A stretch of 63,978 bases of DNA, counting the filler, from Acidimicrobiia bacterium (GTDB lineage: Bacteria; Actinomycetota; Acidimicrobiia; Spongiisociales; CAZKJJ01): assembly GCA_046759765.1 (NCBI GenBank). It is 12 parts of 12 records of this genome, joined end to end, with 100 filler letters (N's around TTAATTAATTAA, not from the genome) between each part and the next. Parts side by side here need not be neighbours in the genome. Positions count along the whole stretch, not along the records: positions 5,940 to 11,598 come from JBHICV010000149.1; 11 more parts are not named here. One strand, given 5' to 3'. The notes beneath the pieces are model-generated. The model searched no databases. It was not told the origin of the DNA and worked only from the letters and a program-made list of their open reading frames with translations. Each line of letters starts with the position of its first letter. Within the stretch, counting starts at the first letter, position 1. Of this stretch, positions 5,840-36,397 are shown in pieces. The translations under genes and the position numbers were made by a program.

Positions 5840-5939
5840 NNNNNNNNNNNNNNNNNNNNNNNNNNNNNNNNNNNNNNNNNNNNTTAATTAATTAANNNNN
5901 NNNNNNNNNNNNNNNNNNNNNNNNNNNNNNNNNNNNNNN
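5840..5939. other. artificial contig linker (N44-TTAATTAATTAA-N44); also at 11599-11698, 17348-17447, 23072-23171, 28730-28829, 34357-34456, 39892-39991, 45364-45463, 50763-50862, 56127-56226, 61480-61579
   Basis: Identical 100-nt spacer with stops in all six frames; intervening contigs decrease in length. Confidence 0.99.
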
Positions 5940-7238
5940 CACGGCGTGAAAGGCTGCTGGGCTTCCGTCTTCACTTCGGATGCCTTGCGGCGGGCGGAAG
6001 CTACCGGCATCACGCCGGAGGAGATCGGTATGGGCGCCCTCGTTCAGCCCCAGATACAACCCGAATACGGAGGGGTCGCTTCCGTCGATTCTTCCGGAAC
6101 CGTCACCATCGCCGCCATTGCCGGACCCCCCGCCGCGATCGTGTCCGGATGGGAGCGGGGCCATGTCGCGGTCGTAGAAAGCGACGCACCGGTTCCGGCA
6201 AAGGCAGCAGGATCCGTGGGGGCGAAGCGTTTGGCCGCCGTGGCCCGCCTGTGCAGGTCAACCAAAGCCCTGATCGGCCTGGACCACATCGAGTGGGCAG
6301 AGGCCGACCGGCGGCTTTGGCTCCTGCAGGCCCAGGCAGGTTCGCCCCGGCCGTTCGCTGTCGAAGACGACGATCCCGGCCCCCGGTTTCCCGCCGACCC
6401 CGATCTCGGGTACTTGGGTCATCTTCTGGTGCGCTACCCCGGGCCAGTCGGGCAGCACGTGGTTCTCTCCTGGGCTGTTGGGTCCGGCCCCCTCCCCGAA
6501 GGCACCGACCCAGGCACCGTCGATACCAGCTGCATGCTGGTGCGGATTCATGAGTTGCAGGACCAACTCGTCGCAGAACGCTGGCCCGAATCCTCCGAGC
6601 CGGACGAGAGCGCGGACCAGCTCTTGCGCATGCTCGAGAGCGATCCACGCTCCGGCCTCGCAACACTGAGGTCTCTCCCCGGCATAGACGCCGGCAAGGC
6701 TGCCGAGCTCATCGGAAATCTTGAAGGCCTCGAGGGGACGTTGACGCAGTCGGGACGGGTCCCAGGCCCCGGCTGGCTGAGCCATCTCCGAAAGTCTGAA
6801 CTCGCTCCGGTCGTAGAAGGAACGCTCAGCTACCCCACCCGCCGAGTCGGGAGGGGACCGTGGGAGGCCCTGGTCTATCGCATCGTGACGGCGCTCGGGT
6901 CGGAGCACCGCGGCCAAAGGGCGACACCGGGATGGGGCGCCGGCCGTATCCGGCTGGTCAGAAGAGAGCAGGACGCGGATGCAATGCCGCCGAGGACGGT
7001 TATTGCCGCCGCCTTTCTTGTCAACAACCTCGCCCCGCTGCTTTGGGATGCGGCGGGCCTGATCACTTTCGGCGGCAGTCCAGGTGCCCATCTGTTCGAG
7101 GTGGCTTCATGGCTCGGGGTTCCGGCGGTATGTGGGATCGACATCGCGGGCGGCTCGCGCCATGTGGCGCCCCGGATCCACGGACGGCTGGGAGCCGTGA
7201 ACGGCGGGGCCGGTAGCTTCTCCGTCCTCGATACCTAG
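5940..7238 (+). CDS. PEP-utilizing-enzyme family protein (end of ATP-grasp domain + central domain + phospho-His swivel domain), 5' partial
   Basis: VKGCWASVF, MGALVQPQI..EYGGVA, IEWA....LWLLQA (PEP-synthase N-domain); GLITFGGSPGAHLFEVASWLGVPAV swivel motif. Confidence 0.78.
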   Translation, partial: HGVKGCWASVFTSDALRRAEATGITPEEIGMGALVQPQIQPEYGGVASVDSSGTVTIAAIAGPPAAIVSGWERGHVAVVESDAPVPAKAAGSVGAKRLAAVARLCRSTKALIGLDHIEWAEADRRLWLLQAQAGSPRPFAVEDDDPGPRFPADPDLGYLGHLLVRYPGPVGQHVVLSWAVGSGPLPEGTDPGTVDTSCMLVRIHELQDQLVAERWPESSEPDESADQLLRMLESDPRSGLATLRSLPGIDAGKAAELIGNLEGLEGTLTQSGRVPGPGWLSHLRKSELAPVVEGTLSYPTRRVGRGPWEALVYRIVTALGSEHRGQRATPGWGAGRIRLVRREQDADAMPPRTVIAAAFLVNNLAPLLWDAAGLITFGGSPGAHLFEVASWLGVPAVCGIDIAGGSRHVAPRIHGRLGAVNGGAGSFSVLDT

Positions 7239-7245
7239 CTGGTCC

Positions 7246-7767
7246 TCAAGAGCTCGACAACAGACGCAAAACGTCCACCGCTTCGGTGAAGTCCGGGAGA
7301 ACCGACGCATCCTCGGTTTGCCACCGATAACGAACCGTTCCCTCCCGGTCGATCACGAAGACCGATCGCTTGGCAAGGCCCTTATGGTCCTTCCATATGT
7401 CGTATCGGGCTCCATAAGCGGCCGCTACCCCCCCGTCCCAGTCTGAGAGCAGGGGAAAGTCGACGCCGAGAGATCGAGCGAACGCCTGCTGGGAGAAGGT
7501 GGCCGTAACCGCCACGGCGACGGGCTGCGCCCCCAGGTCTCGGATATCTGCCGTCCGGCGTCCCAACTGGGACAGCTCGCTCGTTCAATAGTCGCCGAAG
7601 TCGAAGACATAGAAGACAAGCAGCACCGGACCCTTCGTGAGCAGCTCGCCAAGATCCATTGATTCCTCGAACGTCCGCCTCAGGGTGAAGGAAGGCGAAG
7701 TGTCTCCGACCTTCGGGCGTGAGGGGGCTGCTCGAAACCGTCCGCCATTTGCCACCGTGTCCGTCAC
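7246..7767 (-). CDS. selenocysteine-containing peroxiredoxin (AhpC/TSA, AhpE-like), Sec encoded by TGA at 7585-7587
   Basis: ORFs 7585-7767 and 7246-7566 are in frame across one TGA at the peroxidatic position (VFYVFDFGDY-U-TSEL); downstream FPLLSD and KRSVFVIDREGTVRY motifs; no Cys in the protein; SECIS-like hairpin follows. Confidence 0.88.
7558..7576 (-). promoter_or_regulatory. putative bacterial SECIS element
   Basis: mRNA UGA-ACGAGCGA-GC(U)GUCCC-AGUU-GGGAC-GC: bulged U, 5-bp upper stem, loop G 18 nt after UGA. Confidence 0.78.
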
Positions 7768-11598: not shown

Positions 11599-11698
11599 NN
11601 NNNNNNNNNNNNNNNNNNNNNNNNNNNNNNNNNNNNNNNNNNTTAATTAATTAANNNNNNNNNNNNNNNNNNNNNNNNNNNNNNNNNNNNNNNNNNNN

Positions 11699-14868: not shown

Positions 14869-16995
14869 GTGACCTACGTCTACTCCTTTGGCGATCCGCA
14901 CAGACTTCCACGATCGGAAGCGAGGGCGGTCATCGGCGGCAAGGCGGCCAACATCGCGGCGATGGTGGAGTTGGGTCTGCCGGTGCCACCGGGCTTCACT
15001 GTCGGCACTTCTGCGTGTCGGGCGTATCTCGCTGATGGCTGGCCGGAGGGTCTGGACGACGAGATACGGCACCACCTCGGCCGTCTGGAACAAGCAGTCG
15101 GTCGAGGGTTTGGCGACCCGAGGGATCCGCTGCTCGTGAGCGTGCGGTCGGGCGCCGCGGTCTCGATGCCCGGGATGATGGACACGATTCTCAACCTCGG
15201 GCTCAATGACGCCACCACAGAAGGGCTGGTCGCGGTGTCCGGAGATCGACCGTTTGCTGACGCATGCCGCCAAAGGTTCGAGGAGGTGTATAGGGAAGTC
15301 GTGGGCGTTGCCGTGCCTGACGACCCCTGGCAACAGCTGCGGGATGCAATCGAAGCGGTCTTCCGCTCCTGGAACAGCGATCGGGCGCGCGCTTACCGGG
15401 TTCGTGAGGCTATCCCGGACGACCTTGGAACGGCGGTCACTATCCAGGCCATGGTGTTTGGGAACCGAGGTGAAGACTCGGCCACCGGTGTTCTCTTCAC
15501 TCGCAACCCCGCCACCGGCCAGCCAACCCACTACGGGGACATCATGTTCCGCGCTCAGGGAGACGATGTGGTCGCCGGTACCCATCGGACGGAGCCGCTT
15601 TCCGTCCTCGATGAGCGGATGCCTGAGGTCGCCGAAGAGCTCCGGCGTTATGCCGATGCGCTCGAGCCCTTCTTCACCGACGTCTGTGACATCGAGTTCA
15701 CGATCGAGCGGGGCCGGCTGTGGATGCTCCAAGTGCGGATTGGCAAGCGGAGCCCCCAGGCCGCCCTACGGATTGCGGTCGAGATGGCCGAAGACGAAAG
15801 CTTTCCATTGTCACGGGCCGAGGCCGTCGAGCGGGTTGCGCCACTTCTCGCCGATCCTCCGACAACGACGGGCAACCGAAGCGGTGATGCGCAGGTCGTG
15901 GCAACTGGACTGCCTGCGTCGCCGGGCGTGGCATCAGGCGAGATTGTTACCAGGCCCGATGACGCGGTGGTGCAGGCGGAGGCCGGAAAGAGCGTGATTC
16001 TCGTCCGCTCGGAGACCTCCCCGGAGGACGTCCACGGGATGGCCAGGGCGGCGGGCATCCTGACTGCGACCGGTGGTCTCACCAGCCACGCGGCGGTGGT
16101 CGCCAGGGGGTGGGGCATACCGGCAGTGGTTGGGGCGCAGGGGGTGCGCGTGGACGACGGAACGGTCTCGATCGGCGACCTCGCATTTGTGGCTGGGGAC
16201 ATCATCTCGATCGACGGCGGCAACGGCGAAGTCTTTGCCGGCGAGATCGCTAGCACCGCCACGGTCGTCCCGGAGGCGGAGATCCTCCTATCTTGGGCCC
16301 GCGAGCTGGGAATCGAGATCCAAGGTTCAAAGGACATCAGCGTGCCAGACCACAAGAAGATCACCGAGGCCGGCGAGCTCAGTGTCGACAGCCTTGTTCG
16401 AATCCTGCTCATCAAGGGCTTCGCCACCGCGGATCAGATCGCCGCCGCCCTCGGGACGACTCCAGACGAGGCGAGCTCCGTTCTGGATCGACTGGCCGCC
16501 GACGGGTTGGCGGAGCTGACCGGGGGCATGTTTCGGTTGACGCCCGATGGAAGAGCACTGGCTGACGAGATGATTGCGGCTGACCGTGCACAGTGGGGCA
16601 CGGAACAGGCCGAGGAGGCGCTCGATGCCTTCGTTGCAATCGATCAGCGGGTCAAGCAAGTGGTTACGGCTTGGCAGATGCGCGAGGTGGACGGCGAACA
16701 GGTACTCAACGACCATTCTGACCCGGACTACGACTCCTCGGTACTGGCTGACGTTGGCGCTGTCCATACCGAGGCCGTGGCGTGGCTCCGACCGCTAACG
16801 AGCAAACTTTCCCGACTTGATGACTATTTGACCCGGCTGGACAGGGCCGCGGAGCTAGCTCGACAGGGCGATCATGTCTACATCGCCTCACCTACAGTCG
16901 ACAGTTACCACAGCATCTGGTTCGAGCTCCACGAGGATCTGATTGTCCTCGCCGGACGAACCCGGGAGGACGAGGCCGCAGCCGGACGGGCCTGA
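14869..16995 (+). CDS. pyruvate phosphate dikinase-like protein lacking the pyruvate-binding barrel, fused to a winged-helix + helical domain
   Basis: GGKAAN, VPPGF, SVRSGAAVSMPGMMDTILNLGLN, QAMVFGN, GGLTSHAAVVARG; last ~200 aa unrelated to PPDK (wHTH-like segment, DSYHSIWFELHEDL). Confidence 0.88.
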   Translation: MTYVYSFGDPHRLPRSEARAVIGGKAANIAAMVELGLPVPPGFTVGTSACRAYLADGWPEGLDDEIRHHLGRLEQAVGRGFGDPRDPLLVSVRSGAAVSMPGMMDTILNLGLNDATTEGLVAVSGDRPFADACRQRFEEVYREVVGVAVPDDPWQQLRDAIEAVFRSWNSDRARAYRVREAIPDDLGTAVTIQAMVFGNRGEDSATGVLFTRNPATGQPTHYGDIMFRAQGDDVVAGTHRTEPLSVLDERMPEVAEELRRYADALEPFFTDVCDIEFTIERGRLWMLQVRIGKRSPQAALRIAVEMAEDESFPLSRAEAVERVAPLLADPPTTTGNRSGDAQVVATGLPASPGVASGEIVTRPDDAVVQAEAGKSVILVRSETSPEDVHGMARAAGILTATGGLTSHAAVVARGWGIPAVVGAQGVRVDDGTVSIGDLAFVAGDIISIDGGNGEVFAGEIASTATVVPEAEILLSWARELGIEIQGSKDISVPDHKKITEAGELSVDSLVRILLIKGFATADQIAAALGTTPDEASSVLDRLAADGLAELTGGMFRLTPDGRALADEMIAADRAQWGTEQAEEALDAFVAIDQRVKQVVTAWQMREVDGEQVLNDHSDPDYDSSVLADVGAVHTEAVAWLRPLTSKLSRLDDYLTRLDRAAELARQGDHVYIASPTVDSYHSIWFELHEDLIVLAGRTREDEAAAGRA

Positions 16996-34457: not shown

Positions 34458-34610
34458 CATCCGAACGACCCGAACGAGGCCTGGACAGACTTGCTCGAAA
34501 AGGGGATAGTCGCCCGCCGGGACTCGGGTCGAATCCTGTTCGACCTTCGTGCCGTGCCAGAGCGATCCGACGACAGAATCCGGGAGGCACTGACGTCGAT
34601 ATGCCCGTAG
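34458..34610 (+). CDS. selA: L-seryl-tRNA(Sec) selenium transferase, C-terminal fragment
   Basis: GIVARRDSGRILFDLRAV resembles the SelA C-terminus; overlaps the selB start. Confidence 0.75.
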   Translation, partial: HPNDPNEAWTDLLEKGIVARRDSGRILFDLRAVPERSDDRIREALTSICP

Positions 34611-36397
34611 TCGGGACTGCCGGTCACGTCGACCACGGCAAGTCGACCCTGATCCAGGCTCTCACCGGCAGGGATCCAGACCGGTGGGAAGAGGAGAAGC
34701 GGCGTGGACTGACTATCGATCTGGGCTTCGCGTGGACGACTCTCGACGGCGTAGAGGTGTCCTTCGTCGATGTGCCCGGACATGAGAGATTCATCAAGAA
34801 CATGCTCGCCGGCACGGAGGGCATGGACGTCGCGCTCCTGGTCGTTGCCGCCGATGAAGGATGGATGCCGCAGTCGGAGGAGCATCTCTCCGTCCTCGAC
34901 CTTCTTGGTATCGGACCTGGCGTGGTCGCCGTCACAAAGGCCGATCGGGTCGACGCGGAGCACCTCCAGCTGGTGATCCTCGAGCTGGAGGACCAACTAG
35001 AAGGGACTTCGATGGCCGGCGCGCCGATGGTCGTCACCTCCGTGCCCGACGGGACCGGCATCTCGGATCTGCAGGAGGCACTGTCGAAAGCAATCACTGA
35101 GCTGCCAAGCGCTTCTCTGATGGATAGACCCAGGCTCTGGATCGATCGGGCCTTCACGATCCCAGGGGCTGGAACGGTCGTGACCGGAACCCTGACCGAG
35201 GGCAACCTCGAGGTCGGCGACCTCGTCGAGCTTCTTCCGACCCGCAGGCAGGCGAGGATCCGATCACTCCAAAGCCACGAGCAGGACAGGCTCAAGGTGG
35301 AAGGACATAGCCGCGTGGCCGCCAACCTTGCCGGTGTCGATCGGGAGAACGTCCAGAGAGGGATGCTCCTCGCCCCGCCCGGTCACTGGACAATGAGCCG
35401 GAGGATCACCGCCAGCCTTCGTACAGTACGAACTCTGGGCGATCCCCTGACCGCGAAGGGTGCCTACCACCTACACATGGGAACGGGTGCCTGGCCCGTG
35501 AGGTTACGACTGTTGGAAGCCTCCGAGCTGAAGGGAACAGGCTTCGGACTGCTGGAGGCAGATGCTGAGGTGCCCTTTGCCGTCGGTGACCGGTTCATTC
35601 TGCGTGAGGTCGGGCGCAAGGCCGTAGTGGCGGGCGGGCGCGTTCTCGATCCGGAAGCACCCGCGCGGGCGCGGCTGGCCCGGGCCTCACTCAAGAGGCT
35701 GGAAGGCATCTTGGATGTCTCCCCAGATGAACAGGCGACCATGCTGCTCGAAGTGCGTGGCCGGGCCGGACTCAAGGCCTTGTCAGCCCAGACCCGAGGC
35801 GGCCGTCCCCACGCGGCCGCGTTGGCGGCAGACGAAGCCCTGTCGCCAGCGGTATTGAGCACGCTGCGGTCGACCGCGCTCGATCTTGTGAATGAGTTCC
35901 ACCGGGACAATCCGCTACGCCCGGGAGTCCCCAAGGCCAGCCTGGCCAGCGGATTGGGCGTGACCTTGAGCGTACTGGACGCCCTGATTGCAGAGACGCC
36001 AGAGCTGACGGACGAGGGCGCCGCCGTGGCTGCCCGAGGTTTCGACAGTGCTCTAACGCCGGATGGGGAAGCGGCTTGGAAGAGAGTCACCGAGGAGCTC
36101 CGCGCGGCGGGACTCTCGGTTCCTCGGGCTTCGGAACTGTCTGCCGAAGACGATCTTCTCCACGCGATGGTGCGGAAAGGACATTTAGTGGCCGTTTCGG
36201 AGGAGTTGCTTTATCTGCCAGAGCAGCTGGATGACCTGCGCGCCTCCTTGAATGACTTGTCGGAGCCATTCACAGTGGCACAGTTCCGTGACGCTTTCTC
36301 GATCTCACGGAAATACGCGGTGCCGCTGCTCGAGTGGTTGGACTCCGAAGGGGTGACGCAGCGCCGAGGTGACCTGCGGTCGCTCAAGCCGTCCTGA
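34601..36397 (+). CDS. selB: selenocysteine-specific elongation factor
   Basis: GTAGHVDHGKS, EEKRRGLTIDLGF, DVPGHERFIKNM, C-terminal ISRKYAVPLLEWLD..G.T.R.GD.R. Confidence 0.95.
   Translation: MPVVGTAGHVDHGKSTLIQALTGRDPDRWEEEKRRGLTIDLGFAWTTLDGVEVSFVDVPGHERFIKNMLAGTEGMDVALLVVAADEGWMPQSEEHLSVLDLLGIGPGVVAVTKADRVDAEHLQLVILELEDQLEGTSMAGAPMVVTSVPDGTGISDLQEALSKAITELPSASLMDRPRLWIDRAFTIPGAGTVVTGTLTEGNLEVGDLVELLPTRRQARIRSLQSHEQDRLKVEGHSRVAANLAGVDRENVQRGMLLAPPGHWTMSRRITASLRTVRTLGDPLTAKGAYHLHMGTGAWPVRLRLLEASELKGTGFGLLEADAEVPFAVGDRFILREVGRKAVVAGGRVLDPEAPARARLARASLKRLEGILDVSPDEQATMLLEVRGRAGLKALSAQTRGGRPHAAALAADEALSPAVLSTLRSTALDLVNEFHRDNPLRPGVPKASLASGLGVTLSVLDALIAETPELTDEGAAVAARGFDSALTPDGEAAWKRVTEELRAAGLSVPRASELSAEDDLLHAMVRKGHLVAVSEELLYLPEQLDDLRASLNDLSEPFTVAQFRDAFSISRKYAVPLLEWLDSEGVTQRRGDLRSLKPS

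Follow-up and report, generated by a model that had tools for sequence, protein, structure and literature searches.

A selenocysteine-containing peroxiredoxin candidate with a VxxxGxxU active site and BCP/PrxQ affinity in a binned genome

The peroxiredoxin locus and the selenocysteine machinery of the genome

The DNA analyzed here (the window, 63,978 nucleotides including filler) consists of 12 contigs of a single binned genome, G000, chained by N-TTAATTAATTAA-N spacers. This bin is 92% complete and 2.4% contaminated, its nearest relatives carry the label Acidimicrobiia, and contigs with this DNA originate from runs in which one study sequenced hydrothermal-vent metagenomes. On contig C149 we observe two in-frame halves of a reading frame separated by a single TGA, which, when read through, give a protein of 173 residues without any Cys (Table 1; GTG 7755 is another possible start). 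The Pfam domain AhpC-TSA covers residues 20 to 147 and spans the TGA (E, 6.6e-25). An earlier reading of the window from sequence only had joined the same halves into a Cys-free AhpC/TSA protein, leaving the strand unstated, and had predicted that gene callers would split it. Both points hold: standard gene calls produce an N-terminal and a C-terminal piece with the catalytic residue in neither, and databases keep the two halves as separate proteins.

The gene is preceded by a divergent amidohydrolase gene and followed by a convergent gene resembling PPDK; another PPDK-like frame lies on a different contig. A promoter search for the peroxiredoxin gene gave no match, and two weak terminator-like sites fall within its reading frame.

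Table 1. Positions of the features discussed, in window coordinates unless a contig is named
Feature	Position	Strand	Remarks
N runs	5840-5939, 11599-11698 and onward		Between joined contigs
PPDK-like ORF (PPDK_N and PEP-utiliser domains)	5946-7238		Weak match; truncated at contig start
Predicted peroxiredoxin-fold selenoprotein ORF, 173 aa on read-through	7246-7767	minus	GTG 7767 to TGA 7246; contig C149
W125-x-x-H128...R134 loop	7366-7395	minus	R134, conserved catalytic Arg
A86-V-T88	7504-7512	minus	In place of the S-x-D usual in Cys relatives
Putative SECIS upper stem-loop, UGUCCC-AGUU-GGGACG	7559-7574	minus	Loop G at 7567
In-frame TGA, codon 61, almost certainly read as Sec	7585-7587	minus	Peroxidatic column, early in helix 59-70
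Motif VFDFGDYU (VxxxGxxU versus PxxxT/SxxC)	7585-7608	minus	Gly at -3 in 102/102
PPDK-like ORF (PPDK_N and PEP-utiliser domains)	14869-16995		Contig other than that of the 5946-7238 ORF
selA, 3' end	34458-34610	plus	Contig C155; remainder on C220
selB	34601-36397	plus	Contig C155; SelB domains; TIGR00475 over cut-off
selD, whose catalytic site also has TGA (AG-TGA-ACK)	G000:C108:6375-7298	minus	Hairpin downstream
tRNA-Sec (selC), 5' end	G000:C114:8223-8239		Final 17 bases of contig; gene broken by assembly gap

The selB gene and selA fragment that had been noted at 34458-36397 are real and belong to the same bin. Their proximity to the peroxiredoxin gene within the window is meaningless, since C155 and C149 are separate contigs joined by a spacer. 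Because the last bases of C220 recur at the beginning of C155 (39 nt, two mismatches), selA and selB constitute one operon split in assembly. Matches to selA, selB, and selD are all over cut-off in G000, where two PF04879 matches are candidates for fdhA. Of selC and selD, which the earlier reading had proposed to look for in the same bin, selD is present, and selC is recovered only as its initial 17 nt, where a contig ends. The tRNA-Sec gene of the closest relative begins with the same 17 bases, which have no second copy in G000 and lie in a region syntenic with selC of that relative. Rfam, a motif scan, and nhmmer yielded no complete tRNA-Sec in G000, the best Rfam match being tRNA-Leu(TAA). 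As a side observation, selD of G000 is a selenoprotein gene too.

The family shows a patchy occurrence, with carriers among 14 of 61 relatives (G000 included), 2 of 81 Geodermatophilaceae genomes, and 4 of 401 genomes across the phylum; two unpublished genomes, G015 and G072, enter these denominators only. All 14 carriers among the relatives have selA and 13 have selB, the one without it being an 81% complete genome (G048). Co-occurrence of carriers with Sec machinery nevertheless has little power, because selA and selB are present in 56 and 54 of the 61 relatives, respectively.

Conservation of the stop codon and of the downstream hairpin

Codon 61 occupies the column of the peroxidatic Cys when the protein is aligned with peroxiredoxins of the PDB. 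We compared 102 distinct family genes, derived from 113 loci kept at ≥50% identity and drawn from genome contigs (19), the 61 relatives, 81 Geodermatophilaceae genomes, and metagenomes (best 80 of 142). A stop codon occupies this column in every one of them, 83 times as TGA and 19 times as TAG, and sense codons are absent; a phylum-wide search added three genes, which have TGA as well. Sequences falling below 50% identity, namely, 2 haloarchaeal and 16 AhpE-like ones from the relatives and 3 AhpE-like ones from Geodermatophilaceae, were dropped, and all of these have Cys. Beyond the clade, at least 133 of 140 representatives covering the column have Cys there, counted among the best 150 profile-search matches listed. 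Homologues show TGA or TAG within the clade and Cys in most of its relatives, a pattern that the sequence-only reading had proposed to look for, and its placement of Sec at the peroxidatic position is borne out.

Database entries reflect the split of the gene. Of 759 database homologues that passed, the best 120 were listed, and 119 of these are C-terminal halves of 95 to 133 aa; 13 separate N-terminal halves ending in FDFGxx were found, 8 of which were read. Trp occupies the Sec column in a single database protein (P0004), for which we infer translation with code 4; 30 loci at 84 to 96% identity to it all have TGA. Another protein considered as a Trp read-through, P0170, was rejected as a different Cys-less protein. 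A weak test for clade members that are full length and have Cys, a region search with one candidate, gave no match, and the best full-length representatives reach approximately 43% identity to the clade. Reads with TGG or TGC had been named at the outset as evidence that would count against Sec. Contigs from runs X1 and X2, which belong to one study with X4, span the TGA and show no difference there, and a divergent X4 contig carries 13 differences that leave the TGA codon unaffected. One family gene (L120) contains a further stop two codons past the first. In another (L038:1639-2373), the frame continues for approximately 130 residues past the peroxiredoxin into what by eye is a RidA/YjgF-type domain, either as a fusion or through a lost stop.

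Stop codon and tRNA-Sec anticodon agree in all 10 other genomes checked, as TAG/CUA in four and as TGA/UCA in six. TAG genes with a named host are from Geodermatophilus and Blastococcus, and since the four TAG genomes all belong to Geodermatophilaceae they represent one switch, not four. A CUA tRNA-Sec in this bacterial family is reported in the available text of PMC5330540, which cites Mukai et al. 2016, and the peroxiredoxins described here appear as a further gene class following the recoding from UGA to UAG. Both a pseudogene and read-through as Trp or Cys are disfavored, because neither would track tRNA-Sec. Separately, in a Nocardiopsaceae bin (G064, with L060 and L065) we observe two different tRNA-Sec genes, both UCA, owing to duplication or to bin contamination.

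Downstream of the UGA, the hairpin comprises a 6-bp stem and an AGUU loop with G in second position. The loop begins 16 nt after the UGA, its G lies at 18 nt, as first described, and the folding energy is -12.7 to -15.2 kcal/mol. These values fit the bacterial SECIS model given in the available part of PMC13188914 (loop, 3 to 9 nt; stem, 4 to 16 bp; G in loop positions 1 to 2; spacing, 16 to 37 nt; MFE, ≤-7.5). Folding of the single sequence stays within chance (z of 0.39, -1.08, and 0.56 for 60, 45, and 88 nt, respectively), with a z of -2.14 only for a 31-nt piece picked afterwards, and a crude scan of G000 for TGA plus hairpin returns 28 sites, this one included, that are mostly noise. The significance of the hairpin rests on comparison, not on single-sequence folding. 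Across 86 distinct 39-nt segments, 89.3% of 516 cells are paired, and two-sided changes occur in three of the six stem pairs (18 cells). None of 500 shuffles scores as high and slid registers reach 41 to 56%, although these controls overstate the result because the structure was drawn from the same related sequences. Together with the fit to the model, this covariation substantiates the SECIS element claimed by the sequence-only reading.

Codon choice provides independent support for the SECIS. At +7, TTG encodes Leu in 28 of 28 cases, compared with 35 of 433 at other sites of these genes, and at +6 CAG encodes Gln in 30 of 30, compared with 84 of 116 at other sites; over all 102 genes, TTG is found at +7 in 100 and CAG at +6 in 102. 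A metagenome subclade (L100 to L130, L134, and L139) has Arg for Gly at +8, with the stem kept and the loop widened by two bases to AGUUGC. Several of its copies adjoin a gene for a luciferase-like monooxygenase.

Active-site residues and placement among peroxiredoxins

Pxxx(T/S)xxC/U is described as the peroxiredoxin motif in the available texts of PMC8945050 and PMC13188914. Relative to it, Val (98 genes) or Cys (4 genes) and never Pro occupies position -7 across the 102 family genes, and Thr or Ser is absent from position -3 in all of them. These counts are biased, since VFYVFDFG-type sequences were among the seeds for the contig scans. The 18 genes from other genomes that were obtained by whole-genome search (13, 2, and 3) all have the same motif. 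The replacement of Pro and Thr that had been noted in the single protein therefore extends family-wide, but the motif is not confined to the Sec form. The 133 Cys representatives are drawn from the best 150 matches listed when 1.84 billion proteins were searched with a profile; PxxxT/S is present in 85 of them, Gly at -3 in 14, and VxxxGxxC in 2. Since Gly at -3 occurs in these 14 Cys relatives, loss of the hydroxyl does not depend on selenium. Cys peroxiredoxin-like proteins with Gly for Thr/Ser (xxDFGxxC) include P0175, P0232, P0138, P0166, and others, which are unnamed or labelled peroxiredoxin or Q/BCP.

Further residues distinguish the family, as assessed in the 92 proteins that cover the region. 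A86 is found in 91 of these and Thr or Ser at position 88 in all 92, versus Ser (120 of 133) and Asp (107 of 133) at the same sites in Cys relatives; W110 also differs family-wide. W125, H128, and R134 are each invariant (92/92), and R134 is present in 101 of 102 in the wider gene set, the remaining gene not covering it. This Arg aligns with the "KR" of PDB entries 2cx3, 3hjp, and 2ywn. The acid at +3 is retained as Glu in 84 and Asp in 6 of the 92 proteins. A resolving Cys at +5 occurs in none of the 102 (Ser 87, Leu 5, Ala 4, Thr 3, Ile 3) versus 64 of the 133 Cys relatives. No Cys at all is present in 43 of the 92 proteins, and the commonest extra ones (at +54 in 24 and at -19 in 17) are not general.

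A quick IQ-TREE tree of 89 rows and 157 columns, with SH-aLRT as the only support measure and PDB sequences left aside, groups the 19 Sec rows in a single clade (100) that is separate from the 11 AhpE-like rows (95), with weak deeper links. This bears out a distinct subfamily, as had been suggested, whereas the AhpE-like identity proposed at the same time is not sustained. One of the AhpE-like rows matches Mycobacterium tuberculosis AhpE with an E of 7.7e-39, and the Sec protein does so with 5.6e-15 (phmmer). The family profile scores 114 to 119 bits against archaeal BCP/PrxQ structures versus approximately 84 for M. tuberculosis AhpE. A predicted model with a pLDDT of 93 has the peroxiredoxin fold, with a TM score of 0.84 to Bcp4 and 0.80 to AhpE, so that fold alone separates the two little. 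By profile and fold, the closest solved relatives are archaeal BCP/PrxQ proteins, with weakly supported placement in the tree. The best sequence and fold matches are 2cx3/4gqf (Aeropyrum pernix PrxQ), 3hjp (Sulfolobus Bcp4), and 2ywn. These share with the family their length and the C-terminal pattern AKRxVFVID..G.V.Y.W..D...P, but at approximately 30% identity they differ in that the family has Sec for Cys, AxT for SxD, and neither the Pro, the Thr/Ser, nor the +5 Cys.

Known Sec peroxiredoxins are likewise distinct from this clade. Those with PxxxTxxU are established (available part of PMC13188914), and PrxU of Eubacterium acidaminophilum (PF00578, TxxU; NF040737) resembles the family in its peroxiredoxin fold, peroxidatic Sec, and SECIS within the coding region. 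It differs in having PxxxTxxU rather than VxxxGxxU, and its model spans 233 positions versus approximately 160 to 175 aa. The G000 protein scores 45 bits with NF040737 against a cut-off of 270, 25 bits with NF045827 (Prx-SUH, CxxU) against 298, and 26 bits with a SelL-related model against 120, and the best E values among 37 members are 2.5e-16 for NF040737 and 6.9e-10 for NF045827. The Prx-like UxxC/UxxU, UxxS (cd02970), and Prx-SUH proteins in Table 1 of PMC13188914 have the same thioredoxin/peroxiredoxin fold with Sec but other Sec motifs. A GxxU peroxiredoxin is absent from that table, a 2026 inventory of 119 families to which the clade would add a subfamily, and our literature search for a bacterial GxxU selenoprotein peroxiredoxin found no description of it among the entries listed. 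Sec peroxiredoxins, bacterial SECIS elements, and UAG recoding are already in print, and this is not a new kind of system.

Proposed function and alternative explanations

The gene almost certainly encodes a Sec-containing protein of the peroxiredoxin fold, judging from its conservation and context, and insertion of Sec at the UGA is close to certain. The claim of a selenoprotein made from the window itself is thereby sustained by stop codon conservation, the SECIS, and Sec machinery in the same bin. Our preferred reading, to which we assign a probability of roughly two in three, is a one-selenium peroxiredoxin of a distinct lineage related to BCP/PrxQ that likely reduces hydroperoxides; given Sec, peroxidase activity is probably its main job. 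SelB bound to the hairpin just 3' of the UGA would insert Sec61, which on the first turn of the active-site helix would act as a selenolate with no Thr/Ser hydroxyl to assist it. Sec is already ionized at neutral pH. The selenolate would attack ROOH, oriented by Arg134, in a pocket that the family-specific T88, W125, and H128 may reshape, and an outside thiol would recycle the resulting selenenic acid. Thioredoxin is the likelier reductant than mycothiol, because three thioredoxins are over cut-off in G000 and mshA, mshC, and GlrX_actino are not. Direct reduction of 1-Cys BCP by Trx is described in the available text of PMC8945050. The enzyme would have an accessory role beside the ordinary AhpE-like and BCP proteins of G000, often in catabolic oxidoreductase clusters.

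Peroxiredoxin speed is ascribed to a Cys/Thr/Arg triad, and the share of Thr is debated in the literature available to us. For yeast Tsa1, the accessible part of PMC5024103 calls T44A "quite active" at 1000-fold under wild type and T44V nearly dead, and names Arg as the indispensable residue. The available parts of PMC13188914 and PMC7231847 term the hydroxyl residue crucial or essential, the latter presenting Thr as proton acceptor and citing a case in which only Ser could substitute. Considering these statements and the near loss of activity in T44V, the predicted peroxidase activity could be weak. A natural family with conserved Gly and Sec offers a direct test of whether selenium replaces the hydroxyl. 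More speculatively, a selenium-only lineage (no Cys form among 102 genes) may have dropped Pro and Thr/Ser and formed a new pocket from Sec, Arg134, and the invariant Trp-x-x-His loop, achieving fast catalysis along another route or with another substrate. The lineage may have been kept so strictly that in Geodermatophilaceae its codon switched to UAG along with the tRNA; we regard this scenario as tentative and on balance doubtful.

Alternatively, the protein could be a true selenoprotein whose main task is no longer peroxide scavenging. It might instead sense redox state, or reduce either a small metabolite or a partner enzyme of the catabolic clusters around it. Two of the three motif residues ahead of the catalytic one are gone, positions 86, 88, 110, 125, and 128 have changed, and G000 already possesses AhpE-like and BCP proteins. 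The neighbors at the 30 loci scanned vary and are mostly catabolic, with recurrent Gfo/Idh/MocA oxidoreductases, amidohydrolases, HbpS-like proteins, a cyclase, FAA hydrolase, and the luciferase-like monooxygenase. Yet no one neighbor is common to most loci, and neither a fixed neighbor nor a reductase partner is conserved beside the gene among these 30. The catalytic Arg and the +3 acid are kept and the predicted fold is that of an intact peroxiredoxin, and we consider such a non-scavenging role the most serious competitor, though an unlikely one.

Far less probable is a Sec-bearing AhpE orthologue recycled by mycothiol and mycoredoxin. It would agree with the single catalytic residue and the actinobacterial hosts, which the family shares with AhpE of M. 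tuberculosis (Rv2238c) along with the fold, and with the TM score and phmmer match given above. This reading conflicts with the separation from the 11 AhpE-like rows, the different motif, a profile score 30 to 35 bits higher for archaeal BCP/PrxQ, and the failure of the mycothiol genes to pass cut-off in a 92% complete bin. Least credible of all is that the stop is genuine or is read as Trp or Cys, so that the locus would comprise two short proteins or a pseudogene, or the organism would use another genetic code. The separate database entries for both halves, the Trp of P0004, and a hairpin that alone is not significant might be taken to favor it. However, all 102 genes have the stop at the catalytic column and conserve both halves, TAG appears exactly where tRNA-Sec has CUA, the hairpin covaries, and the same genes often end in TGA as their normal stop.

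An AhpC with Sec-TAG was described in Blastococcus saxobsidens DD2 in 2017 (available part of PMC5330540). As far as text and legend allow comparison, it is similar to the present family in its AhpC-type domain, UAG-coded Sec in Geodermatophilaceae, and bSECIS, and it may be either this family or a second, Prx-like UxxC family with TAG and the motif LRGDW-U-PYC (L191, L192, L193, L195, and L196), which is 26% identical to the protein studied here. The text supplements of PMC5330540 that were searched gave no match to this family. In 10 Geodermatophilaceae genomes, chosen as known carriers or as rich in AhpC matches, the LRGDW-U-PYC family occurs in five and the family described here in three. 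BSepDB covers Geodermatophilus africanus and Acidimicrobiia genomes, according to the available part of PMC13326102, and family members may be entered there with a generic name. We also observe a second candidate selenoprotein in G000 itself (G000:C14:28428-28892, minus strand), a Prx-like FLRGDW-TGA-PYC (UxxC) protein with the motif of L191 to L193, L195, and L196. Finally, a TlpA/ResA-like gene (L194:387) has TAG replacing the Trp before CxxC (NFWAS-stop-CVPC), which is probably a nonsense change and not Sec.
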